Both the position numbers and the translations under genes were made by a program. This document shows positions 2,158-37,578 of a stretch of DNA of 64,000 nt, one piece after another. Each line of letters starts with the position of its first letter. The first letter of the stretch is position 1. The stretch spans positions 2,676-66,675 of the forward strand of contig CAIOAT010000028.1 of NCBI GenBank assembly GCA_903856085.1, given 5' to 3'. The notes beneath the pieces were generated by a model. That model was not told where the DNA came from. It worked only from the letters and a program-made list of their open reading frames with translations, and did not search any database. This DNA is from Candidatus Omnitrophota bacterium. Lineage in GTDB: Bacteria > Omnitrophota > Omnitrophia > Omnitrophales > Aquincolibacteriaceae.

Positions 2158-2160
2158 GGG

Positions 2161-17742: not shown

Positions 17743-18558
17743 ATGAAGACTATGGGGATCATTGCGGGGAATGGACGTTTTCCCATCCTGGTCGCAGAGG
17801 AAGCTAAGCGGGCGGGATACCGGATCGTAACCTGCGCTATTGAGCAGGAGGCTGAGCCTTGCTTAGAGAAACTCTCGGATGCTTTTTCGTGGGTCAAAGT
17901 CGGGGAGCTTAAAAAGCTTTCTAAATTTCTGAAGAGTGAAGGCGTTCACGAGGCTATCATGGCTGGCAAGATTGAAAAGGTGCGTTTCTTTAAAGAGAAC
18001 GTACGCCTCGATCTTGATATGATGGCGGTTCTTGTGAAATTGAGAGACCACAAGGATGACTCTCTTCTCGGCGGCATTGCGGATTATCTGTTTAAAAAAG
18101 GCATCGTTCTCCAGGATTCCACCTGCTTTCTCAAGAGTATGATGCCGGGACCGGGACTGCTTGGAAAAAAGAAGCCGTCCAATTCCGTGATGGACGACAT
18201 CGATTTTGGTTTTGGAATAGCACAGAAGATCGCCGGCGCGGACATCGGGCAGACGGTGGTCGTGAAGAATAAATCCGTGCTAGCGGTCGAGGCCATTGAA
18301 GGCACAGACGAAGCCATACGCCGAGGCGGGGCATTGGGTCGCGGGAAGATCGTTGCGGTAAAAGTAGCGAAACCCAACCAGGATATGCGTTTCGATGTGC
18401 CGGCCGTAGGACTCAAGACGCTGGAGGTCCTGATCGAAACGCATGCCGAGGCTTTTGCGTTTGAGGCCCATAAAACACTTTTTATCGGCAAAGATATTTT
18501 TATGGAAAAAGCTAATCGCGCGGGGATTGTTCTTTACGGAGTGAGCGACAGGCCTTGA
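17743..18558 (+). CDS. lpxI: UDP-2,3-diacylglucosamine hydrolase LpxI (DUF1009) family
   Basis: [12 protein letters not shown]-terminus and the RFDVPAVG motif near the C-terminus. Position after lpxA. 271 aa. Confidence 0.7.
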
Positions 18559-20150
18559 AAGATGAAACTATGAATAGTGATAAAAAAAGATTCTCCGGCG
18601 GGCTGCAACGCGAGACTCAGGAGCTCGGGGTGCTCTATGAGATTACCCGACATATGAGTGCGCCGGTCCCACTTGAAGACCGGATGAGAAAAGTGTTAGA
18701 TGTTCTTCATGAAAAAATGGGCATGCACCGTGGGACTTTGACCCTCGTTGATGCAGACAGTGAAAGCCTCACGATCGAGATCGCCCACGGTCTTGATGAC
18801 CAGGCAAAGAAGAAAGGCCGATATAAAATCGGCGAGGGGATCACGGGCAAGGTCGTGGAGGCGGGAGAGCCTATTGCGGTCCCTAACATCGGAGAAGAGC
18901 CTCTTTTTCTCAATCGCACCGGTGCGCGGAAGGATTTCCGCCGTAACCGTATCGCGTTCATCTGCGTTCCCATCAAGATCGATCAGGAGACCATCGGCGC
19001 TTTGAGCGTAGATCGGCTTTTCGAAGGGAATGTTTCGCTGGATGAGGACCTGAGACTCTTGACCATCATCAGCTTCATCATTGCGCAAGCCGTCGCGAAC
19101 TATCGGCTCCGCGAAAAAGAAAAAGTGAAGCTTCAGTTCGAGAATGTTGAGTTGAAGCGCGAGCTTGCCAAAAAATTCCATCCGACTAATGTGATCGGTA
19201 AAAGCAAACGCATGGAAGAAGTTTATGAGGCCATTGAAATGGTAAGTCAGACGCGCTCGACCGTGCTCCTGCGGGGCGAAACGGGAACCGGGAAAGAGCT
19301 TGTGGCACATGCGATCCATTACGGGAGTTTTCGCTCGAAGGGACCGTTTGTGAAAGTGTCCTGCGCTGCGTTGCCGGAGACGCTTCTTGAGAGCGAGCTT
19401 TTTGGGTATGAAAAGGGTGCCTTTACGGGAGCCTTGGCTAAAAAGTTAGGGCGTTTTGAGATGGCAGACGGCGGAACGTTGTTTCTCGATGAGATCGGTG
19501 ATATCTCAGCGTCGATGCAAGTCAAGCTTTTGCGGGCGCTCCAGGAGAGAGAATTCGAACGCGTGGGCGGAACCCAAACAGTTCGTGTGGACGTCCGTGT
19601 GATTGCTGCGACGAACCGTGATCTTGAAAAGGCGATGCAGGAAAAAAAGTTCCGGGAAGACCTCTACTACCGGCTTAACGTGGTGCCGATACTCCTTCCA
19701 CCCTTGAGGGAAAGGAGGGAAGATATCCCCCTCTTGGTTGCGCATTTTTTGAAACAAACGAGTCTCGAGAGCAATAAAAAAGCTCGTTATGTTTCCGATG
19801 AGGCCATGGCTTATCTGATGAACTACTATTGGCCCGGGAATATCCGGGAACTGCAGAATGCTATCGAGCGAGCCGTCATTCTTTGTAAAACGGATACCCT
19901 TGAGGCGGACCTTTTTCCAATTCCCGGAGAAAAAGGACACCCCGCGGCGATTCATTTTAAACCTGTGCGGGTTGCCGATGCACCCCCTGGAGAAAACAGC
20001 TCATTGGCTTCGGCGGTCGAAATTCTTGAAAAGAGTCTGATTCAGGAGGCTCTTCGTTCTCAGGGGGGGAACCAGCGCAAGGCGGCTAAGGTTCTTGGCG
20101 TGACGGAGCGCATTCTGGGGTATAAAATCAAGAACTACGGGCTGAAGTAA
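18555..20150 (+). CDS. sigma-54-dependent transcriptional activator with N-terminal GAF domain (NifA-like) and C-terminal Fis-type HTH
   Basis: GAF region ([24 protein letters not shown]). AAA+ Walker [15 protein letters not shown] motif, [16 protein letters not shown]-terminal [28 protein letters not shown]. Confidence 0.85.
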
Positions 20151-20250
20151 GCGATTCGACAAAAATGTAGGCAGTTGCTCTTAGGAAACAATTTTGTAGC
20201 TTTACCTTAGGGCCTAAAGGAAGTTTCCCTCAGGTAAAGAGTTTTTGACT

Positions 20251-20266
20251 TGGCACAAAATTTGCA
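20251..20266 (+). promoter_or_regulatory. sigma-54 promoter (-24 TGGCAC / -12 TTGCA) for glnN
   Basis: Exact TGGCAC-N5-TTGCA about 85 nt upstream of the ATG at 20351. Confidence 0.6.
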
Positions 20267-20350
20267 TCTAAGGTGTTGTAGGCCCTATCCTCGCCTTAAT
20301 AAGAAGGGCTAGATTTTAAGAATTTTCAATCCAAAAAAAAGGGAGGTTTT

Positions 20351-22492
20351 ATGTGCGGCGATAACGCTTGTCAGTGCGGTTGTAAAAAAGTGGATGTGAC
20401 GAAGATCTTTGGAAGCAATGTTTTTAATGACAGGACCATGAGAGAACGCCTCCCGAAGGAAACCTACAAGGCCCTCAAGAAAACGATCCAGCAAGGGCTT
20501 CCGCTTTCTCCCGAGGTGGCCAACGTTGTTGCAAACGCGATGAAGGATTGGGCTATCGAAAAAGGCGCGACGCATTATACCCACTGGTTTCAGCCACTCA
20601 CGGGACGGACTGCGGAAAAACATGACTCTTTTATTTCTCCGACTGACGATGGCAGCGTGATCATGGAGTTCTCCGGGAAACAATTGGCCCAGGGCGAACC
20701 GGATGCGTCGTCATTTCCGAGCGGTGGTCTTCGTTCTACCTTTGAAGCGCGGGGTTATACGGCGTGGGATTGCACCTCTCCCGCATTCCTCAAGGAGGAT
20801 GCTTCGGGGAATGTAACGCTCGCTATTCCGACGGCGTTCTGCTCTTATACAAGTGAAGCGCTTGACAAGAAAACGCCACTTCTCCGTTCCATGGAAGCGG
20901 TTTCTCGACAGGCTGTTCGCGTGCTAAAAGCGCTTGGCAACAAGACTGCAAAACGTGTGACTGCGACGGTGGGTCCTGAGCAGGAATACTTCCTGATCGA
21001 TAAGACCTGCTATGAAAAGCGCCTCGACTTGATCGTTTCCGGGAGAACGCTTTTTGGTGCTGCGTCGCCCAAGGGGCAGGAGCTTGAGGATCAGTACTTC
21101 GGCGCAATCAAAGACCGGATTGCCGACTTTATGAGGGATCTGGATATCGAGCTCTGGAAGATGGGGGTCTCTTCCAAGACTAAACACAACGAAGTGGCAC
21201 CTGCGCAGTATGAAATGGCACCGATCTTCTCCACGACCAACATTGCGGCGGACCACAACCAGCTTGTGATGGAGACCATGCAGAAAGTGGCGCTCCGCCA
21301 TGATCTCGTGTGCCTTCTTCATGAGAAACCGTTCGCGGGTGTGAATGGTTCTGGCAAGCATAATAACTGGTCACTTTCGACCGATGACGGGCAGAATCTT
21401 CTGGAACCGGGGAAGACCCCTTCCGAGAACGAGCAGTTCCTGATCTTTGTGAGCGCCCTTCTCATGGCCGTGGATCGTCATGCAGACAAACTTCGGGCAA
21501 GTTGCGGCAATCCTGGCAACGATCTTCGCCTTGGCGCAAATGAAGCACCTCCGGCCATCATCTCCGTATTTATGGGCGATGAGTTTACCGAGATCTTGGA
21601 AGGTATCGCTAAAGGTAAAAAAGTCGAATCCCGAGGCCAGAGCTTTCTTCATATCGGGGTCGATGCTTTACCGCCTCTTCCCAAGGACAATACCGATCGT
21701 AACCGTACCTCGCCTTTCGCGTTTACGGGCAACAAATTCGAGTTCCGCATGGTCGGCTCTTCAGCCTCCATTTCCGGTCCGAATATTGTAATCAATACTA
21801 TTGTTGCGGAAGCGCTTGACGAGATCGCAACGCGTCTTGAGAAAGCCGGTAAAAATGGCCTTAACAAGGAAGCGGGTGCGATCGTTCGTGACGCCGTGAA
21901 AAAACATGGGCGCATTATTTTTAACGGGAACAATTACTCGGACGAGTGGGTTGCGGAAGCCAAGAAACGCGGTCTGCCGAACATCAAGACCGGTATCGAT
22001 GCTCTGGCCACCATGGCAACGCCTCAAGCGGAAAAGCTCTTTGATAAGTATCAGGTCTTGAGTCCCAAAGAGCTCCATTCTCGCTACGAAATCTATCTGG
22101 AGACTTATGTGAAGCATGTGAATATCGAGGCACAGGCGTCCGTCCAGATGGTCAAGCGGCTCTTCATTCCTGCGGGCATGAAGTTCGCGGCCGAGCTTGC
22201 AGGAGCTATTGGCGTTCTGAAAGCCGCTTCGGCGCCGGCTACGGTTCAAAAAGAATTACTCTCCACTGTGAGCGGTCTTTTGTCGGGGGCGTCGGAAAAA
22301 CTCGCGGTACTTGAAACGGCGATTGAAAAGGCGCATCACTTGGCCGATGTGGTCAAACGTGCCGAAGCGTTTCGTGACAAAGTGGTCGTGGCGATGAACG
22401 CTCTTCGCAAGGATATCGATGCTCTTGAGGGTGTGACTGCCACGGAGTACTGGCCTGTGCCCACCTACGCAGAAATGCTTTTTAAGCTTTAG
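20351..22492 (+). CDS. glnN: glutamine synthetase type III (GlnN)
   Basis: 713 aa. N-terminal [22 protein letters not shown]...[26 protein letters not shown] is characteristic of GSIII. AGGGAGG SD. Confidence 0.9.
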
Positions 22493-22516
22493 AATACCGT
22501 AGTCTTGAAATAGGGT

Positions 22517-22568
22517 AAGGCGGCTCTGATTATTTGATAGTTTAATTAAAGGTAATCAGAGTCGCCTT
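22517..22568 (+). other. 16-bp-stem hairpin (AAGGCGGCTCTGATTA ... TAATCAGAGTCGCCTT) directly after glnN
   Basis: Seen in sequence. No T-run follows. Confidence 0.5.
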
Positions 22569-22601
22569 GCCAACCCTCAGATTTATGATAAGGGCAAGGC
22601 A

Positions 22602-22641
22602 GGCGGGCTTCCTCAACCCCTGAGGAGCTCGCCTTTTTTTT
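22602..22641 (+). terminator. rho-independent terminator of glnN
   Basis: GGCGGGCTTCCTCA-acccc-TGAGGAGCTCGCC stem followed by T8. Confidence 0.65.
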
Positions 22642-22711
22642 GGATTATCATCGTAAGGCTTTTCTTCCTCTCTAGTCCTTTTTTCAAATAATTCGTTGAG
22701 TTTTTCTAAGT

Positions 22712-22726
22712 TGGCACGCCTTTTGC
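22712..22726 (+). promoter_or_regulatory. sigma-54 promoter for amt-glnK pair 1
   Basis: Exact TGGCAC-N5-TTGCT about 105 nt upstream of the ATG at 22831. Confidence 0.6.
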
Positions 22727-22830
22727 TTACTCTATAAGTGTGCGTGAATACAACGGGTTTTTTATTGCATCGAAAATACAAAAATGTGCAACAAATCTGT
22801 AAGTTTCGACTTTTAAAGGAGGATGAAACG

Positions 22831-24159
22831 ATGCGAAAATTAAGAGTGTGGTTCTTGGGGGCGACAGGGTTTCTGGCGCTTATGGGAGTTTCGAAACTGG
22901 CGCTGGCCGCGGGGACAGTCGCTCCGGTCATTAATACCGGGGACACGGCCTGGGTATTGATTTCCGCTGGGCTTGTATTCTTAATGACACCGGGCCTGGC
23001 GTTCTTCTACGGGGGGTTGGTCCGGAAAAAGAACATGCTTTCTGTCCTTATGCAATGTTTTATGCTCATGTGCATCATCACGCTTCAGTGGGTGATGTTT
23101 GGCTACAGCCTTTCGTTCGGGCCGGATATAAAGGGGATTATCGGAAACTTGAGCTGGGCAGGACTTCACGGAGTCGGGATAACACCTTTCGCGGATTATT
23201 CAGCGACTGTTCCGCATCAGGCTTTTATGATCTATCAAGCGATGTTCGCCATCATCACCCCAGGCTTGATCCTGGGTGCTTTCGCGGAAAGGATGAAATT
23301 TTCCGCGTTTGTGGTCTTCTCGCTTCTTTGGGCCACATTCGTTTATGATCCAGTTTGCCACTGGGTATGGGGGGTGGGTGGTTTCCTGAGAAACTCAGGA
23401 GCTTTAGATTTTGCAGGCGGTACGGTGGTTCATATTAATGCGGGTGTTGCGGCTTTAGTCTGTGCGATCGTGCTGGGCAAAAGAAAAGGGTACCCTAGCC
23501 ATATGTCGCCTCCGCACAATCTCCCGTTCGCGGTGCTTGGCGCGGGACTTTTGTGGTTCGGTTGGTTCGGATTTAACGGGGGAAGTGCTTTGGGCGCTAA
23601 TGGCTTGGCCACCAGCGCGCTTGTGGTGACGCATGTCGCCGCTGCCGCTGCAGGCCTGACCTGGTCCCTGTTGGAATGGAAGATCAGCTCCAAGCCTACC
23701 ATGCTCGGAATGATCACGGGTGCTGTCGCCGGCCTTGTCGCCATTACGCCTGCAGCAGGATTCGTGGGTCCCATGGACGCCATTTGGATCGGTGTTGGAG
23801 TTTCAGTGATCTGCTATTTCTTTGTGGCTGTGGTCAAAGCCAAGTTTGGCTATGACGATTCACTGGACGCTTTTGGCGTGCACGGTGTTGGCGGAATCTG
23901 GGGGGCTTTGGCCACGGGTCTTTGGGCCACGAAAGCTGTCAATCCTGCCGGGAATAACGGGCTCTTCTACGGGAACCCCGGACTTTTTCTGATCCAGCTA
24001 AAAGCTGTGGTCATTACCATTGTCTATTCATTCATCGTTTCATTCGTTCTTCTGAAGATCGTGGATTTGGTGATAGGTCTACGCGTTTCAGAGGATGAAG
24101 AACGTATCGGGCTTGATCTCACGCAGCATCGTGAGTCTGGCTACACCATGCTGGATTAA
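22831..24159 (+). CDS. amt: ammonium transporter Amt/AmtB (copy 1)
   Basis: Signal peptide, then DTAWVLISAGLVFLMTPGLAFFYGG, Amt twin-His region, and C-terminal GLDLTQHRESGYTMLD. AAAGGAGG SD. The track's 22738 start is rejected. Confidence 0.9.
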   Translation: MRKLRVWFLGATGFLALMGVSKLALAAGTVAPVINTGDTAWVLISAGLVFLMTPGLAFFYGGLVRKKNMLSVLMQCFMLMCIITLQWVMFGYSLSFGPDIKGIIGNLSWAGLHGVGITPFADYSATVPHQAFMIYQAMFAIITPGLILGAFAERMKFSAFVVFSLLWATFVYDPVCHWVWGVGGFLRNSGALDFAGGTVVHINAGVAALVCAIVLGKRKGYPSHMSPPHNLPFAVLGAGLLWFGWFGFNGGSALGANGLATSALVVTHVAAAAAGLTWSLLEWKISSKPTMLGMITGAVAGLVAITPAAGFVGPMDAIWIGVGVSVICYFFVAVVKAKFGYDDSLDAFGVHGVGGIWGALATGLWATKAVNPAGNNGLFYGNPGLFLIQLKAVVITIVYSFIVSFVLLKIVDLVIGLRVSEDEERIGLDLTQHRESGYTMLD

Positions 24160-24169
24160 GGAGGAAACC

Positions 24170-24511
24170 ATGCGCTACATCATCGCGATCATTCAACCGG
24201 ATCGGCTAGACGAGGTGCTCCAGATCCTTGAAGAAAAAGAGATCCATCTTGTTACCGTGACCAATGTCCTGGGGCGCGGTCGTCAAAAAGGGATCTCGGA
24301 GGTTTATAGAGGGCACAAGGAAGGTGGCCGGCTCTTGAAAAAAGTCAAACTGGAGATTGCCGTCAATGATGAATATGTGCAGGTTACGATCGACGCGATT
24401 ACCCAGGGTGCTCGGACCAATCACATCGGGGATGGCAAGATCTTCGTCCTCGATCTTAAAGAGTGCTTTCGCATTCGCACGGGTGAGATCGGTAAGATAG
24501 CGATCGGGTGA
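24170..24511 (+). CDS. glnK: nitrogen regulatory protein P-II (GlnK-type, amt-linked), copy 1
   Basis: 113 aa MRYIIAIIQP... with B-loop GRGRQKG, T-loop ...VYRG..., and C-terminal GDGKIFV...IRIRTGE. AAGGAGG SD overlaps the amt stop. Confidence 0.9.
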   Translation: MRYIIAIIQPDRLDEVLQILEEKEIHLVTVTNVLGRGRQKGISEVYRGHKEGGRLLKKVKLEIAVNDEYVQVTIDAITQGARTNHIGDGKIFVLDLKECFRIRTGEIGKIAIG

Positions 24512-24601
24512 TTTTTATACGCATGTGAAAATTGGTTTTAAGAGAGAATTACTTATAAAACAGCATGCTCTGTGCTTCCCAGTTCCTGATTTGCGCAAAC
24601 T

Positions 24602-24617
24602 TGGCACATCTCTTGCA
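24602..24617 (+). promoter_or_regulatory. sigma-54 promoter for amt-glnK pair 2
   Basis: Exact TGGCAC-N5-TTGCA about 130 nt upstream of the ATG at 24749. Confidence 0.6.
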
Positions 24618-24748
24618 GTCTAGTCTATGGCAGCGCGGTTTCTTTTCTGAGCGCAGAATAGAAGGGAATTTTTTTGTCCAAAAGCCTACAAAAATGTATG
24701 ACGAATTCGTCGAAAAGAGGATCTGTCGACAAAAAAGGGGGAGTTCTG

Positions 24749-26077
24749 ATGCGGAAAAAAAGTAAGTATTTTTGGGGGAGTGCAATTTTTTTTATGCTTC
24801 TTGGTGCATCCCAAACAGCCTGGGCTGCAAGTCCCGCAGTTCCGGCGATTAGCGGCGGGGATACCGCATGGGTTCTTATCTCGGCGGCCCTGGTATTCTT
24901 GATGACACCCGGTCTGGCTTTTTTCTATGGTGGGCTTGTTCGCAGGAAGAACATGCTTTCCATCCTGATGCAGTGCTTCATGCTGATATGTATGGTGACG
25001 CTTCAATGGGTCCTTCTCGGCTATAGTTTAGCGTTCGGGCCTGATGTGAAGGGTCTGATCGGTAACTTGAGCTGGGCGGGTCTTCAGGGTGTGAGTCTGG
25101 ATCCATTCGCGGCTTATTCGTCCACGATTCCACACCAGCTTTTTATGATCTATCAAGCGATGTTCGCGATCATTACGCCAGGCCTGATCCTGGGCGCTTT
25201 CGCGGAGCGCATGAAATTTTCTGCGTTCTGTGTTTTTTCAATCCTTTGGGCGACCTTGGTTTATGATCCGGTGGCTCACTGGATGTGGGGTGTCGGCGGT
25301 TTCTTAAGAAATATGGGGGCTCTCGATTTTGCCGGAGGGGTTGTGGTTCACATCAACGCGGGCATTGCCGCTCTTGTCTGCGCCTTGGTCCTTGGAAAAA
25401 GAAAAGGTTATCCTCAGCATATGTCGCCTCCTCACAATCTACCGTTCGCTGTTTTAGGCGCCGGACTTCTTTGGTTTGGTTGGTTCGGATTCAATGGCGG
25501 CAGCGCGCTAGGCGCTAATCGGATCGCTGTCAGCGCTGTGGTTGTTTCTCATATCGCAGGGGCAGCTGCCGGACTGACTTGGGCGCTGCTGGAATGGAAG
25601 TTCAACTCCAAGCCCACCATGCTCGGTATGATCACCGGCGCCGTTGCGGGGCTTGCTACGATCACTCCCGCTGCGGGTTTTGTGGGGCCGATCGCTGCGA
25701 TCTGGATAGGGATTATAGCCTCGGTAGTCTGCTATTTTTGTGTGGCGGTGGTCAAAGCAAAGTCTGGTTATGATGATTCGCTGGATGCTTTCGGCGTGCA
25801 TGGGGTCGGCGGGATCCTGGGGACTTTGGCTACGGGTTTTTGGGCGTCAAAAGTCGTCAATCCTGCCGGCAATAACGGGCTCTTTTACGGGAACCCGGGA
25901 CTCTTTCTGATCCAGTTGAAAGCCGTGGTCATTACCATTGTCTATTCATTTATCGTCTCTTGGGTCCTTCTGAAGATCGTGGATGCCTTCATGGGTCTAC
26001 GCGTTTCTGAGGACGAAGAACGTATCGGGCTTGATCTCACGCAGCATCGTGAGTCTGGCTACACCATGTTGGATTAA
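24749..26077 (+). CDS. amt: ammonium transporter Amt/AmtB (copy 2, about 80% identical to copy 1)
   Basis: Same motifs as copy 1 with a divergent signal peptide. AAGGGGGAG SD. Confidence 0.9.
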   Translation: MRKKSKYFWGSAIFFMLLGASQTAWAASPAVPAISGGDTAWVLISAALVFLMTPGLAFFYGGLVRRKNMLSILMQCFMLICMVTLQWVLLGYSLAFGPDVKGLIGNLSWAGLQGVSLDPFAAYSSTIPHQLFMIYQAMFAIITPGLILGAFAERMKFSAFCVFSILWATLVYDPVAHWMWGVGGFLRNMGALDFAGGVVVHINAGIAALVCALVLGKRKGYPQHMSPPHNLPFAVLGAGLLWFGWFGFNGGSALGANRIAVSAVVVSHIAGAAAGLTWALLEWKFNSKPTMLGMITGAVAGLATITPAAGFVGPIAAIWIGIIASVVCYFCVAVVKAKSGYDDSLDAFGVHGVGGILGTLATGFWASKVVNPAGNNGLFYGNPGLFLIQLKAVVITIVYSFIVSWVLLKIVDAFMGLRVSEDEERIGLDLTQHRESGYTMLD

Positions 26078-26086
26078 GGGGGAACC

Positions 26087-26428
26087 ATGCGATACATCAT
26101 TGCCATTATTCAACCAGATCGTTTGGACGAAGTGCTGCGGATCCTTGAGGAAAAGGAAATTCATCTTGTCACTGTGACCAATGTTCTGGGTCGCGGTCGT
26201 CAAAAAGGGATCTCAGAGGTCTACAGGGGGCATAAGGAAGGCGGCCGGCTTTTGAAAAAAATTAAACTCGAGATCGCCGTTAATGAGGAATTTGTGCAAG
26301 CCACGGTCGATGCGATCATCCAGGGCGCGCGGACCAATCACATCGGGGACGGAAAGATCTTCGTCCTTGATCTCAAAGAGTGCCTTCGTATTCGTACGGG
26401 TGAGACCGGAAAAATAGCGATCGGATAA
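26087..26428 (+). CDS. glnK: nitrogen regulatory protein P-II (GlnK-type), copy 2
   Basis: 113 aa, more than 90% identical to copy 1. Confidence 0.9.
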   Translation: MRYIIAIIQPDRLDEVLRILEEKEIHLVTVTNVLGRGRQKGISEVYRGHKEGGRLLKKIKLEIAVNEEFVQATVDAIIQGARTNHIGDGKIFVLDLKECLRIRTGETGKIAIG

Positions 26429-26460
26429 GATTATGTTGAAAAGATTCTTCCGGCCTCAAA

Positions 26461-26476
26461 ATCACCTCCCCAGGTG
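26461..26476 (+). other. hairpin TCACCT-cccc-AGGTGA after glnK copy 2
   Basis: Perfect 6-bp inverted repeat. No clear T-run. Confidence 0.35.
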
Positions 26477-26620
26477 ATTGGGAAGTTCCCCTTCCGGCCC
26501 TGATTTCATTTCATTGAAAATGAATAAAGTCAGGGCTGTCCAATTAACTCGTTTGCTTGCGGGAAGGTTGGGATGGGGCGGGGGTTTCTTTTGGGCCGTT
26601 CTCTTTTCCGGAATGAATGT

Positions 26621-28342
26621 TTATCCGGTGATGAGGAGATGACGTTTGGAATCAAGCCTACGGGCGAGGCTTTGGAACACATCTTGGCGCATGAGCCTCA
26701 TCAGGCCGCTGCGTTTCGTAGCTCCAATAAGAACCGTTTCAACGTTCAGTTCGTTCGCGGCCATCGCGATCAATTTTCCTGCATCCTCTCCAGCCTGCCA
26801 GACAGGAACTGCGGTAATCCCTTGTTTTTCCATTTCATTCTGGGCGTGTGCCAAGAGTTCAATGGATTCCTTCGAAGGTTCGACCTCTTCCGGGAGTTCC
26901 GTGAAATCGGGCATGGGTTCCACGTAGCTCAGATAGATGGAATTTTCTCCTCTGGCTTTTACCCGGAGAGCCGCTTCATCCAGTAAAACCGGGTTAAATG
27001 TGCGAAGTGCGACCAGGGACGAACTATGGTAAAGCGAAGCGAGTGCTTTGGCCTCGGAAACCGTGAGAACATTAATGTTCGGAATGAAAGCAGAAACCGG
27101 GGCTCCGGCGAAGTGTTTGCCCATGAATCTCAGCGTGAATCCGACGACTAGTACGGACGTGGCAAAGATCAACGCACTCCTTTTTTCATAGGCGATGGTG
27201 ATCTCCACGAAAAAGAGGATAACGGTTGCGAAAAAGAGAAGTGCTCGCTCCCAGGTTTTGAGCAAGATCTTGTAATTCGTTGCGCAGGACCCAAGATTGA
27301 TCGTAATGGCACCCACGACACCGATGGCGTAAAGGGCCGCCAGTCTTACCAAATTATGTTCGATCACTAGTACGAGGGCGGGAACAGCCGCAGCGACGAT
27401 GAGTGCGAGCCATGGCATCCCGAATTTATTGAGCTTTGCAAAAAGGGGCGGCAGTTCGCCGTCTTTGGCCATGAGGAACTGGATATTCACAAGGTCGGTG
27501 ATCGCTGTGTTTACAGCCGAAAGCAGCAGAAAACCGAAAATGATGGAAATAACTTGTCCATACCAGGGTGCAATGTAGTGATTCGCAAGGGCGCGCAGCA
27601 TATCCTCAGTGTGGTTTCCGAGATTTGGGATTGCGTTCATGGCAATGCCCAAAATGAAGGTGAGGACTGACACCTCGATCAATACGGGCCAAATGGCACG
27701 CTTGGAAGTCTTTGCGACCGGTTCCACCATAATGCCGGTCATATTGGCAATGGCCTCAACACCCGAGAGTGCCAGCACGATCCCCACAAAGCTTGCCCAG
27801 TTCTTGAAGAGTCCGCCTGTGGGCAGCGTAAATTGAGCGTGAGAAAGCGAGGGGATCGTGAAGAAGACAAGGGCGAGGACAGACGCCACGGCTGCGATCC
27901 CGATCAGGGAAGCAATATCGCCGCCCTTGGTCGGTCCCATCCAGTTGATAGCGCCGATTGATACGATCGCGCCGATAGCCCAAAGTTCCGGATGGGGCAG
28001 GTTCAAATAATGAAAAGCATCCAACGCGCTGAGCGATGCCGTCACGACATAATCCGCAATTAAGAGGAATGCCCCTAGCATGGCCAGATTCTGGGAACGG
28101 TGTTTGACCGAAGAGTACACACCGCCGCCGTCAGGGTAGATGCGGCAGATGACCATGTAGCAAATGCCGATCAGGGCGGTCAGGCCGGACATTAGCCCGA
28201 GGAAAAGCCAGGAAGCATGTCCGACCAAGGCAAATGCGATACCGAGGACATAGGCCTTGCTTGTGCCCCAGTCGCCATAAAGCATGGCGGCGGCTTGATA
28301 CCATTTGAGTTCACGGGGTCTTTCAACCTTTTTAGCGAACAT
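26621..28342 (-). CDS. APC-superfamily permease fused to a C-terminal universal stress protein (UspA-like) domain
   Basis: About 420-aa 12-TM-like region with APC-like SGVEAIANMTG...KRAI. The C-terminal about 140 aa is USP-like (LNVETVLIGATKRSGLMRLMRQDVFQSLARRLDSKRHLLITG). Confidence 0.7.
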   Translation of the reverse strand: MFAKKVERPRELKWYQAAAMLYGDWGTSKAYVLGIAFALVGHASWLFLGLMSGLTALIGICYMVICRIYPDGGGVYSSVKHRSQNLAMLGAFLLIADYVVTASLSALDAFHYLNLPHPELWAIGAIVSIGAINWMGPTKGGDIASLIGIAAVASVLALVFFTIPSLSHAQFTLPTGGLFKNWASFVGIVLALSGVEAIANMTGIMVEPVAKTSKRAIWPVLIEVSVLTFILGIAMNAIPNLGNHTEDMLRALANHYIAPWYGQVISIIFGFLLLSAVNTAITDLVNIQFLMAKDGELPPLFAKLNKFGMPWLALIVAAAVPALVLVIEHNLVRLAALYAIGVVGAITINLGSCATNYKILLKTWERALLFFATVILFFVEITIAYEKRSALIFATSVLVVGFTLRFMGKHFAGAPVSAFIPNINVLTVSEAKALASLYHSSSLVALRTFNPVLLDEAALRVKARGENSIYLSYVEPMPDFTELPEEVEPSKESIELLAHAQNEMEKQGITAVPVWQAGEDAGKLIAMAANELNVETVLIGATKRSGLMRLMRQDVFQSLARRLDSKRHLLITG

Positions 28343-28484
28343 GGAATCAGCCCCGCGCTTTCAGGGGGAGAGAAAAAAGGGGGATAGTTAGAGAACGGGA
28401 CAAGAAAATAGCCTTCATGAAAAACTCCTCTCTTTCGCCTACGGGGTTAGCTGACGGGCTAAGGTCGAGGATCTTACCTCTTAG

Positions 28485-28500
28485 GGCCTGATTTCAGGCC
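28485..28500. promoter_or_regulatory. perfect 16-bp palindrome GGCCTGATTTCAGGCC in the divergent intergenic region
   Basis: Seen in sequence. The related 10-mer CCTGATTTCA recurs at about 26499 beyond the 3' end of the same APC-USP gene. Confidence 0.4.
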
Positions 28501-28566
28501 GCTAATTAGCCCCTTATGGTTATTGGGTCCCCCGTTCCGCGATCCGCTGCGGACTCGGCATATAAG

Positions 28567-28589
28567 CGAGCGACTATACGCTCTTTTTT
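28567..28589 (+). terminator. intrinsic-terminator-like hairpin GAGCG-actata-CGCTC plus T7 inside the 557-bp intergenic region
   Basis: Seen in sequence. Plus orientation, about 310 nt upstream of the fusion gene. Confidence 0.4.
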
Positions 28590-28830
28590 TGAAAAATCAA
28601 CAGTCCTTACAACAACCTTTGTGGAGGTTTTCTCGGAGCATGGGATGTGTTTAAACTACTCCTTATTCCACGGATGCAATTTTGGTGCCAACACTTTGCT
28701 CCTGTGCGTTCGAGAGCAGTATTCAATAAAGATGCGGTGATATTACAAAAATGAAGATTGGAGACAAAAATGTCAGAATCTTGAAAAGCCCGCAGGATTT
28801 TTAAGGGGTGGATCAATAGGGGAAGCAAGT

Positions 28831-28845
28831 TGGCATGGTAATTGC
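28831..28845 (+). promoter_or_regulatory. sigma-54-type promoter (TGGCAT-N5-TTGCC) for the APC-PII fusion operon
   Basis: GG and GC at the canonical 12-nt spacing, about 55 nt upstream of the ATG at 28900. Confidence 0.5.
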
Positions 28846-28899
28846 CATATTCTGATGAGACCATCTCAAGAATTGAACTGAGACCAAAGGAGAATATCA

Positions 28900-30789
28900 A
28901 TGGCAAAACAAACGATTACATCAAGAGATATCAAGCCAACGCTTGGACTTTTTGGTGCCACTATGAATGCTATGGCGCTGATCGCGCCAGGGGCGTTTTT
29001 GTGGATCACCTATCAGCTGCAAGCCGCGGCGACTGCGCCTAACGGCATGTCCGTGGCCAGCGACATTTGGCCGGGCATTGTGCTCGCATTGATCGTGGCT
29101 TTTCTTACGGCGCTTGCCTACGCCCAGCTTGCAAAGCTTTACCCAGAGGCCGGGTTCGCGAGTTGTTGCTACTTTGCAGAAAAAGCATTCTTGGACAAGG
29201 CCGGGGCCAGACATAAAACTCATAATACCCCGACCTCTTTGGCGCGCTTTGCCAAACTCCTCACGGGTTGGTCTGCGCACCTGTTCTACTGGGTTTATCC
29301 GGGAATCATGGTCGCTTTCATGGCGACGCTTATCGGATACATCTACACACAGTTTACAGGGCACACTCTCTCCGCGGATACTTTGACACTGATTGGGATT
29401 GCTTTCGCGGGGATCACTGGCTATATCGCTTTCCGCGGGGTGAGCGGTTCTACTAAGGCGTCGATCTGGATCAACATCATTCAATTGACGGCCCTGGTCA
29501 TCTTCAGTGCACTGGCCATTTACTATCGCATGACAAATCCTCAGCATGCGACTCAATGGGCGTTTACGAGTGGCTTTGATATTTTCAAGATCCACTCTCT
29601 CCAAGGGGTGCTGGTGCAATCGACCATAGCCATTTTGATCCTGGTCGGTTTCGAAAGTTGCACGGCCCTGTCTGCAGAAACGAAAGATCCAGGGAAGACG
29701 ATTCCAAAAGCCATTATTCTTTCCCTGCTCATTCAAGGACTTGCGGCGTATCTTTTGCAATATTTTGCGGCGGGTCTCATGGTCAACGAGCATTTGACCG
29801 CGATCACAGGCACTCCAGCGGTCACAGTAACCGGCATGGCTGCGGCGGCTGCATCGAGCGCTCCTATCGGAGACCTTGCGAAGCTGCTCGGGGATAACGT
29901 CCTCCCCGGGATTGGATTTGGATTGATGATCACCATGGCTCTCACGGTAGCCATTGCGATCGTCGGGACGACCCTGAGCTGTATGAATACGGCGGTACGC
30001 GTGACCTGCGGGATGGCGGAAGATAGGGAACTACCGGAGATGTTGGGTTTCATGCATGCCGGGTTCAGCACGCCTCATATCGCTCTGTGGGTATTGGTCG
30101 TGGTTTCCTCGATTATTGCGGGGATAGGCGTGAGATCGGTTGTGGGTTTGACCGGTATTACCCTTGCTTCGAACTTGGGAACATTCATCTTGTACGGGTT
30201 GACCTGCATTTGGACCATTCTTGCGTTCAAGGATCGTAAAGATTTTAGTGCCATCAAGCACGGATGGATCCCGGCGCTCGGGTTGATCGCTAACATTGTC
30301 ATGGTGATCGGCATCCTCTATCTGTATGTCATAGGGAATGCGGACGCGAAGGCGGAGGCCCGGATCTGTTTCATTATTGCCGGCGCATGGGGCGTGATCA
30401 GCGTGTTTTATGTTCTCTTGACCAGCGTTCAAAAAACCTATCGCGTCAAAGTAGTGACGTGTGTTATTCGTCCGGAACAGCTTGGAGACGTGGCCGCGGC
30501 GCTCAGAAAAGAATCCCTCGTGGTCGGCATGACCGTAACCGACGTCCGCGGCTTCGGACGTCAACATGGCGAGACCGAGGCGGATCTGCCGGTCCATGAA
30601 GATACGATCCGGTTCCAACCGAAAGTGAAAATTGAGGTGCTTGTCAGGGACTGGGACGTCAATAAGACTATGCAAGTGATCACGGGCGCCGTACGGACGG
30701 GGAATATCGGTGACGGAAAGATCATCGTGTTTGATGCTTCGAGCGCCATGCGTATCCGTACGGGGGAAAAAGGCGTGTACGCGCTTTAA
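28900..30789 (+). CDS. APC-superfamily permease fused to a C-terminal GlnB/PII signal-transduction domain
   Basis: Residues 1 to about 510 are a multi-TM APC-like permease (GFESCTALSAETKDPGKTIPKAI). The last about 115 aa are a PII domain (YRVKVVTCVIRPEQL...MTVTDVRGFGRQHGE...PKVKIEVLV...GNIGDGKIIVFD...MRIRTGE). AAGGAG SD. Confidence 0.75.
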   Translation: MAKQTITSRDIKPTLGLFGATMNAMALIAPGAFLWITYQLQAAATAPNGMSVASDIWPGIVLALIVAFLTALAYAQLAKLYPEAGFASCCYFAEKAFLDKAGARHKTHNTPTSLARFAKLLTGWSAHLFYWVYPGIMVAFMATLIGYIYTQFTGHTLSADTLTLIGIAFAGITGYIAFRGVSGSTKASIWINIIQLTALVIFSALAIYYRMTNPQHATQWAFTSGFDIFKIHSLQGVLVQSTIAILILVGFESCTALSAETKDPGKTIPKAIILSLLIQGLAAYLLQYFAAGLMVNEHLTAITGTPAVTVTGMAAAAASSAPIGDLAKLLGDNVLPGIGFGLMITMALTVAIAIVGTTLSCMNTAVRVTCGMAEDRELPEMLGFMHAGFSTPHIALWVLVVVSSIIAGIGVRSVVGLTGITLASNLGTFILYGLTCIWTILAFKDRKDFSAIKHGWIPALGLIANIVMVIGILYLYVIGNADAKAEARICFIIAGAWGVISVFYVLLTSVQKTYRVKVVTCVIRPEQLGDVAAALRKESLVVGMTVTDVRGFGRQHGETEADLPVHEDTIRFQPKVKIEVLVRDWDVNKTMQVITGAVRTGNIGDGKIIVFDASSAMRIRTGEKGVYAL

Positions 30790-30834
30790 GTTAAGAATAG
30801 ACTCTGCCATTCACAGAAAGCGAGGGATGAAGTC

Positions 30835-31173
30835 ATGAAAAAGTTAGAGATCATCGTAAAGCCAGGAAAAAGTTCCGTGGTGCGCGAAGCGATCGAAGCT
30901 GCGGGTTACTCAGGGATCACGGCTTCGCAAGCGGAGGGACACGGAACCCAAAAGGGGTTGTCCAAGCCACAGAGCGCAGGGAACTATCGCTTGGAATTGG
31001 TTCCTAAGGTTCGTCTGGAAGTGGTTGTTCCGGATGCTGCGGTGGAACCCGTCATTGAAGCTGTGATAAAGGCGGCAAAAACGGGCGAGCCCGGGGACGG
31101 CAAGATTTTTGTTTCGGATGTTAAGGAAGTGATCCGAATCCGTACTGGTGAACGTGGTGAGAAGGCAGTTTGA
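30835..31173 (+). CDS. divergent standalone PII-like protein (non-canonical B/T-loop GHGTQKG)
   Basis: 112 aa MKKLEIIVKP...GITASQAEGHGTQKGLSKPQSAGNYRLELVPKVRLEVVVPD...GEPGDGKIFVSDVKEVIRIRTGE aligns along the full length of GlnB. GAGGGA SD. Confidence 0.7.
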   Translation: MKKLEIIVKPGKSSVVREAIEAAGYSGITASQAEGHGTQKGLSKPQSAGNYRLELVPKVRLEVVVPDAAVEPVIEAVIKAAKTGEPGDGKIFVSDVKEVIRIRTGERGEKAV

Positions 31174-31186
31174 TGAACGATTAGGT

Positions 31187-31432
31187 ATGAATGGGGTAAA
31201 TGAAATGCAGATCGAAGGCTCAGATCAAATAGGTAGCTTTAAGGTGGATCACGGAGGTCTTTCCAGAAAGGGGAAACTTCCGGAAGCGGTCCACGAATTG
31301 GAGAAGCAGATGATCGAAGAGGCCATGGCGCGTTCCGGGGGGAATCAGCGTCTGGCCTCCGAGATCCTCGGGATCACCGAACGCATGCTGGGTTACCGGC
31401 TAAAGAATTACGGTCTGAAGCCTTTCGTTTGA
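31187..31432 (+). CDS. small Fis-type HTH protein, resembling the detached C-terminal DNA-binding domain of a sigma-54 activator
   Basis: ...ELEKQMIEEAMARSGGNQRLASEILGITERMLGYRLKNYGLKPFV parallels the C-terminus of the 18555-20150 regulator. The start is uncertain: ATG 31187 or 31205, and the track uses GTG 31148. Confidence 0.5.
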   Translation: MNGVNEMQIEGSDQIGSFKVDHGGLSRKGKLPEAVHELEKQMIEEAMARSGGNQRLASEILGITERMLGYRLKNYGLKPFV

Positions 31433-31463
31433 AGATTAGTTAAAAATAAAAAAGGAGGAAGCA

Positions 31464-32804
31464 ATGGGAAAAATACAAAGAGGTTTGTTAGGTTTTTGGT
31501 TGATCGGGATGTGTCTTGCCCCAGGCGCTGTATTTGCCGAGACGACGAGTGAAGTCACAGCTCTGAAGGCGCAGATCGATGCGCTGAGCCGAAAGCTGGA
31601 AGCCATGGACAGTAAGATGATGACCATGGAAAAGCCGGCGCCCGGCGCGCAGACGGCCTATATTCCTCCGGCTCCCGCAGAGCAAGGGGGCGTTCTGCAT
31701 ACCGCCATGAAGGACATTCATATGGGTGGTTACGTGGAAACCCAATATCAGAATAAGATCGGACAACCGCAGCAGAACGGGAATGTGGGGCGTTCGCTCT
31801 CTGATAAGGCTGCCGATACCTTCTCTGTAAATGCGGCCAAGCTCTGGTTCGAGAAAGTGGCGAATCCTGAGGGCGGAGCCGGTTTTCGCATCGATATGAT
31901 GATGGGAAGCGACGTCCGTTACTACTTCAATAATTTCCAAAAAGATAATCTTGGGAATTCGAACAATGGCAGCAGCGGGGCAACGGCTTTTGCTTTCGAA
32001 CAGGCCTATGTTCAGTATATCGCGCCCTTGAGCTTCTGGTCCGGGAGCAAGATCCTGCCGCATAGCATCGATATCAAAGCTGGTAGGATGGTCACTTTAG
32101 CGGGCAACGAAGTGATCGAGGGATATCAGAACTGGAATATCAGCCGCTCGGTCTCTTTTGGTTATGCGATCCCTTTCACGCATACTGGGGTCAGGGCGAC
32201 CTATGCCTTGTTTAACGATTACCTGACCGTTTATCAGGGGATCAACAACGGTTGGGATAATGATATCGAGAACAATTCGTACAAGACCTTTGAGAATGCG
32301 TTCAGCTTCAGCCCACTCAAGGACGTCAAGTGGACTACGGCGACTTATTTTGGGCCTGAGAACAACGGCGCGAGTGGCGGAAAGCGTTTTCTGGCTACGA
32401 ACGTTCTGAGTTGGAATGCAACCAAGAAGCTTTCGTTTGCGGGTGAATTTGATATCGGCAATCAGCCTCGTGTTGATATCGCGCAGGATGGTGTGTTCCA
32501 TACCGCTCAATGGTTCGATTATGCCGCGTATGCCAGGTATCAATTCACTGAAAAGTTAGCCGCAGCTTATCGCATCGAAATGTTTGATGACAGCAATCGT
32601 TACCGGAACTGGACCAATGTCGGAACTGCTGGCGCTACCACGGATCTTGCCAATACTCTGACGCTGGAATACAAGCTCCATGAAAATATGATCGCCCGGG
32701 CAGAGTACCGGATCGATTATGCTCATGCCGGCGACGGAACGGTGTTTGGCGGAAATCATCAACAGAATACACTAGGCGGTTCGCTATCCTATGTGTTCGG
32801 CTAA
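31464..32804 (+). CDS. outer-membrane beta-barrel porin-like protein with N-terminal coiled coil
   Basis: Signal peptide (LAPGAVFA/ET), about 40-aa heptad-like segment, then about 380 aa with alternating aromatic/hydrophobic residues ending ...LSYVFG. AAGGAGG SD. The family assignment is by pattern only. Confidence 0.55.
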   Translation: MGKIQRGLLGFWLIGMCLAPGAVFAETTSEVTALKAQIDALSRKLEAMDSKMMTMEKPAPGAQTAYIPPAPAEQGGVLHTAMKDIHMGGYVETQYQNKIGQPQQNGNVGRSLSDKAADTFSVNAAKLWFEKVANPEGGAGFRIDMMMGSDVRYYFNNFQKDNLGNSNNGSSGATAFAFEQAYVQYIAPLSFWSGSKILPHSIDIKAGRMVTLAGNEVIEGYQNWNISRSVSFGYAIPFTHTGVRATYALFNDYLTVYQGINNGWDNDIENNSYKTFENAFSFSPLKDVKWTTATYFGPENNGASGGKRFLATNVLSWNATKKLSFAGEFDIGNQPRVDIAQDGVFHTAQWFDYAAYARYQFTEKLAAAYRIEMFDDSNRYRNWTNVGTAGATTDLANTLTLEYKLHENMIARAEYRIDYAHAGDGTVFGGNHQQNTLGGSLSYVFG

Positions 32805-32815
32805 GTAAAACGTGT

Positions 32816-32862
32816 CTGGGGGGAGGCAGCCCGCGAGTGCTGTCCTCCCCCAGTTTTATTTC
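32816..32862 (+). terminator. rho-independent terminator after the porin gene
   Basis: CTGGGGGGAGG-cagcccgcgagtgctgt-CCTCCCCCAG then TTTTATTT. Confidence 0.65.
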
Positions 32863-32998
32863 TCCCGGCCCTAAAATTGCCTCCCCTGGTAATGATGTCC
32901 GTACCCACCCGTTTGTTCTGTGATGGGAGGGACGCGGGGCTGGGACTTTTTTGAAGATTTAGATATTTAGTTCTCTTGAATTTATTGATCATCCGCCG

Positions 32999-33027
32999 CT
33001 GGACAGTTCTCTCAACCTGAAGTATTC
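32999..33027 (+). promoter_or_regulatory. candidate sigma-70 promoter for carAB (TGGACA-N17-TATTCT), with an ARG-box-like TTGAATTTATTGATCA just upstream
   Basis: Seen in sequence about 140 nt upstream of carA. Confidence 0.3.
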
Positions 33028-33167
33028 TATGCCCCGAAATGAAGGCATTCTGATCAGTCTTGATTCCCGGTAATTGGTAATCAGGACAGCCCCATTCAAC
33101 CCATGAAATTGACGGGAGGATTGGAGCAGTACGGAAGTCCACGGATTCACTTACCCCAGGTAAAACC

Positions 33168-34286
33168 ATGAAAAAAGCGATACTAGCGCTCGAGGATGGT
33201 GTGTGGTTTGAAGGCGAAGGTTTCGGCGCTGATGGCGAAACTTTTGGGGAAGTCGTTTTTAATACGGGCCTGAGTGGCTATCAGGAAATCCTCACCGATC
33301 CCTCCTATAAAGGTCAGATGGTCTGCATGACCTATCCGCATATCGGCAATTATGGCATCAACGCGGCAGATAGTGAATCCGCGAGGCCCTGGGTCGAAGG
33401 GTTTATCATCAAAGAACTCAGTCCCATCGTCAGCAATTACCGCTCCGAGATGACACTGGATCAATACTTGAAGAAGTACAATATCCTCGGTATTCAGGGA
33501 ATCGACACACGCAAGCTTGTGAAGCACCTAAGGACGGTGGGCGCGAAGAAAGCAGTTATTTCCACCCTGGAACTCGATCCGAAAAAACTTAGCCAAAAGG
33601 CCAAGAAATCCCCAAGTATCGAAGGCGTCGACCTTGTGAAAGAGGTCATGTGCCAAAAACCTTTTGTGTTTGACGAAGTCATGCCCGCGGAATTCGCCTG
33701 GGGCGATCAAAAGAAAAAGAAATACAAAGTCGTGGCCGTGGACAGCGGAACTAAATGGAATATCCTGAGAAAACTCAACCAGCACGGTTTTTATGTTCAG
33801 GTCGTTCCCGCGACTGCGACTGCCGAAGAAATTTTAGCCTATCAGCCGGATGGGGTCTTTCTCTCGAATGGTCCCGGCGATCCCTCGGCTGTGAAGTATT
33901 TGGTTGAAACGGTTCGTAAACTTATAGGGAAATGCCCTATGTTCGGGATCTGTCTCGGGCATCAGATGATCGGGCAGGCCCTCGGTGGGAAGACCTCAAA
34001 GCTCAAGTTCGGGCATCACGGTAATAACCAGCCAGTCATGGACCTTAAAACGCGCAAAATCGAAATCACCTCCCAAAATCATAATTTTGTGGTGAATATT
34101 GATACGCTCCCAAAAGGGGAGGTCGAGATCACCCATATCAATTTGAATGATAAGACGATGGAAGGATTGCAACACAAGAAACATCCGCTTTTCAGCGTGC
34201 AATATCACCCCGAGAATGCTCCGGGGCCGCACGATAGCGACTATCTCTTCGCCCGTTTTTATGACCTTATAGAGAAGAATCAATAA
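33168..34286 (+). CDS. carA: carbamoyl-phosphate synthase small (glutaminase) subunit
   Basis: Typical CarA N-terminus ([41 protein letters not shown]) and GATase region (GICLGHQ). Confidence 0.9.
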
Positions 34287-34287
34287 C

Positions 34288-37200: not shown

Positions 37201-37578
37201 ACTGATAAGCCCAAGATCGCCGAGATCGCTCGGGAGTTCCATAAGCTGGGCTTGAAGATCGTTTCGACCAAGGGGACGGCCAAGGTTTTGAAAGAAGCGG
37301 GAGTTCCTGCCGAGGAGGTTCTCAAAATGGTGGAAGGAAGCCCCAACCTCTCGCATTGGATCAAGGAAAAGAAGATGGACCTTATTATTAACACGCCAAG
37401 CGGAAAAGGTCCTATGTTGGATGAAGGCAAGATAAGGTCGCTTGCAGTCTCCTTTAATATTCCCTGCATCACCACGCTGAGCGCCGCCCGTGCGGCCGTG
37501 CGAGGGCTCCAGGCCGTAAAGGATAATGATCTGGATGTCCGGTCGATTCAAGACTATCACGGTGTTAAGAGTAAATAA
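34288..37578 (+). CDS. carB: carbamoyl-phosphate synthase large subunit
   Basis: 1096 aa with two ATP-grasp halves, an oligomerisation domain and a C-terminal MGS-like domain. N-terminal [22 protein letters not shown]. Confidence 0.95.

Follow-up and report, generated by a model that had tools for sequence, protein, structure and literature searches.

Transcription from sigma-54 promoters strictly requires an activator and its enhancer. In Enterobacteria such promoters precede glutamine synthetase, amtB-glnK, and nitrogen-scavenging transporters, and they are served by a single master activator system, NtrB/NtrC, which acts from several enhancers at a distance of about 100 bp. The nitrogen gene cluster considered here occupies positions 18555–37578 (carAB included) of a 64 kb stretch of DNA from a Candidatus Omnitrophota bacterium (below, the window means this whole stretch) and appears to resemble the enterobacterial system in these features, while it differs in the GAF sensor fused to its activator in place of a receiver and a kinase, in the recognition sequence, and in a glutamine synthetase of type III. 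The NifA protein of diazotrophic Proteobacteria shares its domain order and, by inference here, a GAF response to nitrogen/carbon status with the GAF-AAA+-HTH activator encoded at the 5′ end of the cluster. Unlike NifA, this activator would have ammonium transporters, PII, and glutamine synthetase as targets, not nif genes; its putative site is ACA-N4-TGT within CTACAAATTTGTAG, not TGT-N10-ACA; its recognition helix is another one; and it has neither NifL nor a Cys-rich linker.

The Nlh1 and Nlh2 proteins of Aquifex (AQ_218 type) are also GAF-AAA+-HTH one-component sigma-54 activators of non-diazotrophs, although their identity to the activator is only ~40–45%, and the leader-embedded sites and the DNA-binding-domain-only paralogue described below were seen here in Omnitrophota only. 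AQ_218 reportedly binds ~100 bp upstream of glnBA. No published regulon, binding motif, or comparative analysis of the Aquifex NifA-like family was found in the literature, and neither the literature on Omnitrophota nor the Desulfovibrio sigma-54 regulome paper was found to describe a regulator or a motif of this kind.

On the evidence of sequence, the cluster is read as a sigma-54 regulon that serves nitrogen acquisition as well as assimilation and is controlled by the one-component GAF-AAA+-HTH activator, with a probability of about 0.7. As a sigma-54 nitrogen regulon it would be familiar in kind; it would differ by the one-component GAF activator in place of NtrBC, by a new palindromic enhancer shared across phyla, by conserved downstream enhancers at amt-glnK, by a DNA-binding-domain-only paralogue, and by a riboswitch in series with one promoter. 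The original prediction, made from the same window, had proposed a coherent sigma-54 nitrogen regulon under the adjacent GAF-type activator, and the conserved promoters, the synteny, and the shared box presented here support it.

Sigma-54 Promoters of the Cluster

The pattern TGGCAY-N5-TTGC has five exact matches in the window against 0.24 expected from dinucleotide shuffles, and none of the 100 shuffles gave five. All five fall within the nitrogen cluster and none in the rest of the window; a scan with one mismatch allowed brought extra matches at chance level only. P1 (TGGCACAAAATTTGC; 20251–20265, plus strand) precedes glnN and is conserved in the orthologous loci L163–L168. P2 (TGGCACGCCTTTTGC; 22712–22726, plus strand) and P3 (TGGCACATCTCTTGC; 24602–24616, plus strand) precede amt1-glnK1 and amt2-glnK2, respectively, and are both conserved in orthologous loci. 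P4 (TGGCATGGTAATTGC; 28831–28845, plus strand), which has an orthologue in L172, precedes the operon that begins with a fusion of an APC permease to PII, while P5 (TGGCACCAAAATTGC; 28676–28690, minus strand) is divergent from P4 and faces a riboswitch and a gene for an APC-Usp transporter; an analogous minus-strand promoter with its box is present in L164 (21489 and 21563). The four plus-strand sites had been listed in the original prediction as the only matches in the window; all four hold, with GG/GC at canonical spacing, whereas P5 is a fifth that had been overlooked. In orthologous loci with 74–93% activator identity the −24/−12 elements are kept before glnN and each amt operon. A sigma-70-like match at 28600–28573 (minus strand), directly before the riboswitch, is at chance level but could conceivably be a second promoter.

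A Palindromic Box Shared by the Promoters

The symmetrised box consensus CTACAAATTTGTAG, obtained from 38 sites in 9 Omnitrophota loci, is a 14-bp palindrome with a 10-bp core ACA-N4-TGT. The exact sequence ACAAAAATGT is found four times in the window, always within one of the four control regions, and ACAWWWWTGT occurs six times against 0.76 expected, with five of the six ≤105 bp from a promoter. All five promoters have such a box at 50–105 bp. In what follows the distances run from the box centre to the −24 GG of the promoter. The candidate glnN enhancer is an inverted box pair at 20159–20197 (ACAAAAATGT at 20159–20168 and ACAATTTTGT at 20188–20197), with centres at −89 and −60 from P1, and these positions (−87 to −89 and −57 to −60) are repeated within 3 bp in seven of seven Omnitrophota genomes. 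Between the divergent P5 and P4, at 28745–28773, a box ACAAAAATGT (28764–28773; −64 from P4 and −80 from P5) is accompanied by a near-box ACAAAAATGA (28745–28754), the two forming a putative enhancer common to both promoters, and the same arrangement between divergent promoters is found in L172.

At both amt operons tandem boxes 13 bp apart are located inside the predicted transcribed leader, ~30–40 nt ahead of the start codon. In the amt1 leader they occupy 22778–22800 (ACAAAAATGTgcaACAAATCTGT), with centres at +69 and +82 from P2 and ~30 nt before the start codon; in the amt2 leader they occupy 24688–24710 (ACAAAAATGTatgACGAATTCGT), with centres at +89 and +102 from P3, and are preceded by a AGAATAGAAGG-T7 element. 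The amt1 position is kept in L163, L164, and L165, with a single box at +70 in L168, while other Omnitrophota amt operons (L171, L173, and the third operons of L165 and L168) have the box upstream of the promoter. Each of the five promoters thus has boxes on one of its sides, upstream at P1, P4, and P5 and downstream at P2 and P3.

Besides the boxes, the comparison of orthologue leaders at P2 and P3 gave a single conserved block, an AGAATAsAAGG-T6-8 element (22755–22775 and 24662–24682). In either amt operon it stands 10–12 bp ahead of the leader boxes, and four genomes have it in common. This element may be an intrinsic bend or a site of a bending protein; an IHF site was also considered, and its consensus WATCAANNNNTTR, judged by eye, does not fit. 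Because sigma-54 promoters need an activator and the leaders offer no other conserved element for this role, the leader boxes are the only candidate enhancers for P2 and P3. The box is taken to act at the DNA level, because at P1, P4, and P5 it lies upstream of the promoter. Two further candidates were set aside: an attenuator or other RNA element encoded by the leaders of the amt operons, for which there was no Rfam match and on reading no convincing hairpin followed by a U-run, and an amt start at the ATG within ACAAAAATGT, which is out of frame with both amt open reading frames.

Activators of sigma-54 promoters can work from downstream sites, as known from the ftr elements of Caulobacter FlbD and from NtrC sites moved downstream of glnAp2. 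In comparison with these cases the downstream position found here is natural and holds within 3 bp in four genomes; moreover, the downstream sites are kept to amt-glnK, while at the other promoters of the regulon this protein would act from upstream.

Box-like sequences were also observed at the 3′ end of lpxI. The sequence ACATTTTTGT has a fixed coding position there in six orthologues and is degenerate in the window, and a box-like ACAAAAATGT or ACAAAAATAT stands ~50 bp before the lpxI stop codon on the minus strand (L163, 9885; L165, 9852; L169, 9949; L164, 9786; L167, 9950; L168, 9955). It could serve autoregulation or be merely a conserved codon string.

Association of the Box with the Activator Family

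The box adjoins homologues of the activator (38–58% identity) in Acidobacteriota, Aquificota, and other lineages, even at 63–70% GC. Within 400 bp of the homologue gene ends, a total of 37.5 kb, 26 boxes were counted, against 19 in the other 592 kb, which is a 22-fold enrichment (binomial p = 1e-20). The box density is 0.69 per kb near the homologue genes, 0.032 per kb elsewhere, and 0.011 per kb near 111 enhancer-binding proteins (EBPs) of other families. Since the box is enriched beside the homologues and near-absent beside other EBP families, it is most likely the enhancer of this activator family. The layout of the distant loci, with the box ~60–130 bp upstream of a −24/−12 element before amt or nirA operons, can be illustrated by Blastocatellia (L002), where CTACATTTTTGTA-N19-ACAACTTTGTAG lies 100–130 bp upstream of TGGCAT-N5-TTGC before amt, and by Hydrogenothermaceae of Aquificota (L016), where a tandem TACAAAATTGTAATTACAAAAATGTAA is placed ~100 bp upstream of the −24/−12-like TGGCAC-N5-TTGT before cobA-nirA-MFS transporter.

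These data also bear on the idea that the promoters are served by a two-component regulator of the NtrC type whose genes lie in another part of the genome, the GAF activator being left with glnN only or with an unrelated target. NtrBC is the textbook regulator of the glnA, amtB, and glnK sigma-54 promoters, and the visible genome is limited to 64 kb, yet the same box stands at all five promoters and not at glnN alone, box and activator co-vary across phyla, and orthologues without an adjacent glnN (L170 and L171) have amt-glnK or APC-Usp behind the same promoter-plus-box. An NtrC-type site (TGCACC-N5-GGTGCA) was not evident on reading the regions, for which no formal scan was run. The remark of the original prediction that no NtrB/NtrC pair is visible proved correct: no ntrB/ntrC, rpoN, or nif genes are among the annotated genes of the window, and a motif scan that covered both the window and the orthologous loci detected no H-box histidine kinase, while most control EBP loci have one. 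The activator itself has a GAF domain at the N-terminus instead of a receiver domain, and hence lies outside the NtrC-type definition. Control by such a distant two-component regulator is regarded as improbable.

Several observations weigh against the proposed role of the box and of sigma-54. An exact box is nearby in 16 of the 46 distant homologue loci, about two thirds being without it, and the spacings of paired boxes differ (13, 19, and 29 bp). The 10-bp core ACA-N4-TGT is short for a dimer of Fis-type HTH domains, although the 14-bp palindrome has the usual length, and the sites between promoter and ribosome-binding site (RBS) at the amt operons take the classical position of a repressor operator. 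The co-occurrence of box and activator could reflect another factor that regulates the activator gene together with its neighbours. Finally, rpoN was not seen: a motif scan of the orthologous loci and of the window, the ~64 kb of this genome that could be read, yielded no signature of the RpoN box.

The Stand-Alone HTH_8 Protein

The fourth unit encodes, in an unannotated open reading frame at 31205–31432 (plus strand), a stand-alone HTH_8 protein of 75 aa which is a DNA-binding-domain-only paralogue of the activator. It shares 45% identity with the C-terminal segment of the activator, 55–60% with its DNA-binding domain, and 60% over the best 48 residues, and its recognition helix (GITERMLGYRLKNYGLK) is near-identical to that of the activator. 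In searches its own orthologues rank first and are followed by the DNA-binding domains of the activator orthologues (62–75 bits), other EBPs reaching ≤51 bits. The family of these small proteins comprises 79 clusters of 41–94 aa, and wherever the source gives an organism, it is Omnitrophota. The gene always stands between a PII gene and the gene for a BBP2 porin (L165, L168, L172, and L173), and the operon has both a sigma-54 promoter and boxes.

Fis is said to descend from the NtrC DNA-binding domain, and the two proteins are alike as small stand-alone HTH_8 proteins that stem from a sigma-54 activator, namely from its C-terminal domain. The Omnitrophota protein differs from Fis as a recent specific paralogue inside the regulon of the activator itself, and because it is encoded there, feedback is suggested rather than a global nucleoid role. 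A paralogue induced by its parent activator suggests, speculatively, feedback of a competitive or heterodimeric type.

The same protein figures in a different arrangement, in which the boxes are negative operators of another protein (most plausibly this one or an unlinked nitrogen repressor) and the activator acts from solution or uses other, unrecognised sites. Bound to an amt leader, such a protein would block elongation or open-complex formation. The typical operator place of the amt boxes and the presence in the regulon of a small HTH_8 protein with such a similar recognition helix fit this arrangement. It is nevertheless rather unlikely: P1, P4, P5, and most distant loci have their boxes 60–130 bp upstream of the −24 element, which is the geometry of enhancers; the small HTH_8 family was found in Omnitrophota only, yet the box accompanies the full-length activator into other phyla; and P2 and P3 would be left without an enhancer.

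The Activator and Its NifA Label

The activator gene (18570–20150, plus strand, with TTG 18555 as a possible alternative start) adjoins the lpxI stop codon and encodes a GAF-Sigma54_activat-HTH_8 protein according to Pfam, with 247.9 bits for PF00158 (AAA+ sigma-54 interaction) and 43.8 bits for HTH_8. Its translation contains the Walker A motif GETGTGKE and a GAFTGA loop, and together with the Fis-type HTH and the cognate −24/−12 promoters nearby these features identify it as a sigma-54 EBP. Against TIGR01817, the NCBIfam NifA equivalog, it scores 545.8, a marginal pass over the cutoff of 528.85, and the GAF-AAA+-HTH order fits. Among full-length matches in the PDB the best is to NifA of A. 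vinelandii (9qq6, E 7e-113), while the nearest stand-alone GAF structure to the GAF domain is that of Aquifex Nlh1 4g3k (E 9e-26), and the recognition helix is unlike that of A. vinelandii NifA (TPRQIAYRIQTL). In the protein database the activator orthologues form a graded series of 63–93% identity, one of them filed under Verrucomicrobiae; no relative above ~51% identity was found in GTDB species representatives and none above 58% in JGI metagenome contigs.

The designation “NifA-type” used in the original prediction holds by homology but not for the association with nif genes or for NifA-type upstream activator sequences, both of which are missing. It is nevertheless conceivable that the protein is a true nif-specific NifA with nitrogenase targets elsewhere in the genome, its neighbourhood of assimilation genes being incidental. 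Such a view could draw on the TIGR01817 score, on the public annotation of the orthologues as NifA, and on one metagenome-assembled genome (MAG) of Omnitrophota, the first report of nitrogenase in this phylum (PMC9391474). No NifH/nitrogenase signature was found in the window or in ~55 homologue loci (≤10 kb on each side of the gene), and while nitrogenase is known from that one MAG, the activator is fixed at a housekeeping locus in nine of nine orthologue loci (64–93% identity). The classical NifA upstream activator sequence was rejected as the control site: of the five control regions, those of P1, P2, and P4/P5 have no TGT-N10-ACA, and the lone match, in the P3 region, overlaps a box. No NifL-like partner gene was found near the activator, its sequence has no C-X..-C or Cys-rich interdomain linker, and its helix, as said, is a different one. 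A nif-specific function is thus highly improbable.

Because there are no nif neighbours and no TGT-N10-ACA, the helix is different, and the closest GAF is that of Nlh1, the activator is filed as a nitrogen-assimilation regulator which works like the Aquifex NifA-like homologues and probably belongs with them, not with NifA proper. It shows what characterizes that class, a NifA-like GAF EBP in a non-nif context beside nitrogen-assimilation operons with sigma-54 promoters. According to a review, Nlh1 of the non-diazotroph Aquifex probably controls nitrogen assimilation rather than fixation (PMC9866876). Public annotation calls the Omnitrophota orthologues “nif-specific transcriptional activator NifA” (P0016, P0017, P0038, P0043, P0068, and others), and one is named VnfA; this naming is probably a systematic over-annotation which arises from the marginal TIGR01817 pass.

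Signal Sensing

In orthologous loci the start of the activator gene adjoins or overlaps the lpxI stop codon, so that the gene may well be transcribed constitutively together with the lipid A genes; the activator is probably made constitutively and controlled post-translationally via its GAF domain. The candidate signals are 2-oxoglutarate, glutamine, or a PII protein. In NifA the 2-oxoglutarate site of the GAF domain is structurally unresolved, the domain being invisible in the cryo-electron microscopy map (PMC12998190), and some NifA and AnfA proteins are reported to depend on PII instead (e.g., PMC12093980). Direct sensing of 2-oxoglutarate had been suggested in the original prediction; since the cluster encodes three PII proteins and one fused PII domain, PII-mediated control is an equally good alternative.

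Genes of the Cluster and the Fifth Unit

The gene identities given in the original prediction (activator, type III glutamine synthetase glnN, two amt-PII pairs, and the APC-PII operon) agree with Pfam and NCBIfam, and the APC-Usp and HTH_8 genes are added to them. The starts at 18570, 22831, 24170, and 24749 were set from gene-caller output on identical contigs and from RBS positions. On the plus strand P1 is followed by glnN (20351–22492; Pfam GSIII_N, Gln-synt_C, and Gln-synt_C-ter), P2 by the ammonium transporter amt1 (22831–24159; Pfam/NCBIfam, start revised to ATG 22831 with the RBS aaaggagga ahead) and the 113-aa PII protein GlnK-1 (24170–24511; Pfam, start revised to ATG 24170), and P3 by the ammonium transporter amt2 (24749–26077; Pfam/NCBIfam, start revised to ATG 24749) and the PII protein GlnK-2 (26087–26428; Pfam).

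The P4 unit, also on the plus strand, opens with a permease of the APC amino-acid type that carries a complete PII domain at its C-terminus, in residues 517–623 (28900–30789; Pfam), which has a 629-aa orthologue in L172 (4666–6555); a fusion of PII to a transporter outside the Amt family seems unusual. It is followed by the third stand-alone PII protein (30835–31173; Pfam), by the HTH_8 gene, and by the final gene, a BBP2 (OmpL-like) outer-membrane porin (31464–32804; Pfam), which also follows PII/HTH_8 in L165, L167, L168, L172, and L173. The two amt-linked PII proteins are 92% identical and appear to be without the T-loop Tyr51 (E. coli numbering), while the third appears to keep the tyrosine.

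The P5 unit consists of an APC-superfamily transporter with a C-terminal Usp domain (26621–28342, minus strand; Pfam AA_permease_2 and Usp), with orthologues in L164 and L171, preceded in its leader by a cyclic di-AMP (c-di-AMP) riboswitch aptamer (28421–28570, minus strand). The aptamer lies 79 nt upstream of the transporter start and belongs to the Rfam class RF00379, with 67.8 bits (gathering 38) over model positions 1–134. In L164 a riboswitch of 76.7 bits (19979–20126, minus strand) precedes the APC-Usp orthologue and lies downstream of a CitMHS gene which has its own sigma-54 promoter and box. From this arrangement, expression of the APC-Usp transporter would need both nitrogen status and low c-di-AMP. 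A KimA-type K+ importer, an idea derived from the riboswitch, was dropped, no PDB relative of APC-Usp being found by sequence at E ≤ 1e-3. At the position matching APC-Usp, L163 and L172 carry the genes of a Kdp potassium system (kdpA and kdpD with a response regulator) together with a transposase, which hints at a tie of APC-Usp to K+/osmolyte homeostasis.

Locus Context and Synteny

The nitrogen cluster lies between lpxI and lpxB, inside an otherwise conserved bamA-lipid A-msbA block (12498–42960). Nine orthologous Omnitrophota contigs with activators of 64–93% identity were compared, and the frame bamA-ompH-lpxC/fabZ-lpxA-lpxI-activator-[cargo]-lpxB-msbA is common to all nine. The cargo in these nine loci is always nitrogen assimilation and varies by lineage: glnN alone; glnN with one to three amt-glnK pairs and a porin; amt-glnK with a type I glutamine synthetase and glnE; or APC-Usp with amt-glnK and glnA. 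The slot between lpxI and lpxB ranges from ~2 kb, with glnN only (L166 and L169), to >19 kb, and thus acts like a site for variable cargo. Outside the cluster the window holds housekeeping genes (pth, rpsF-ssb-rpsR-rplI, dnaB, bamA, ompH, lpxC-fabZ, lpxA, lpxI, and carAB, as well as lpxB, msbA, hom, thrC, lysC, valS, and uvrB). An AbiEii/AbiEi type IV toxin-antitoxin pair was observed at the left end (1318–3027, minus strand), and an open reading frame of 1808 aa (43147–48573, plus strand) lies in the only stretch of raised GC (0.54–0.56 versus ~0.51).

Proposed Circuit and Its Significance

In the proposed circuit dimers of the active activator would bind boxes of the CTACAAATTTGTAG type and build an AAA+ ring, which would touch the sigma-54 holoenzyme via the GAFTGA loop and open the five −24/−12 promoters. 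P1 would then drive glnN, P2 amt1-glnK1, P3 amt2-glnK2, and P4 the APC-PII permease, PII, the small HTH_8 protein, and the BBP2 porin, while P5 would drive the APC-Usp transporter with the c-di-AMP riboswitch as an additional gate. P1, P4, and P5 would be served by boxes 60–90 bp upstream, and P2 and P3 by boxes in the leader, 70–100 bp downstream of the −24 element, from which the activator would loop back. The small HTH_8 protein made from P4 would probably bind the same boxes or pair with the DNA-binding domain of the activator and so close a feedback, a step that is speculative.

A wider proposal can be put forward only tentatively and is at present doubtful as a whole: GAF activators mislabelled as NifA may be the master regulators of nitrogen assimilation that replace NtrBC in Omnitrophota, many Acidobacteriota, and Aquificota; they would use the undescribed palindrome CTACAAATTTGTAG, in Omnitrophota would drive amt-glnK from leader enhancers, and would be checked there by a self-induced decoy consisting of a stand-alone DNA-binding domain.

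In terms of biology, the analysis proposes for an uncultured phylum a concrete circuit that combines an activator and a DNA motif with five promoters and a riboswitch, and the box can help to predict the regulons of this activator family in several phyla. The NifA label, for its part, could mislead the metagenomic inference of diazotrophy. The sigma-54 promoter in series with the c-di-AMP riboswitch would link nitrogen status to c-di-AMP (osmotic/potassium) signalling. If true, the leader enhancers and the DNA-binding-domain paralogue inside the regulon extend the known wiring of sigma-54 activators, and the feedback loop of the decoy type would be one not described for them before.

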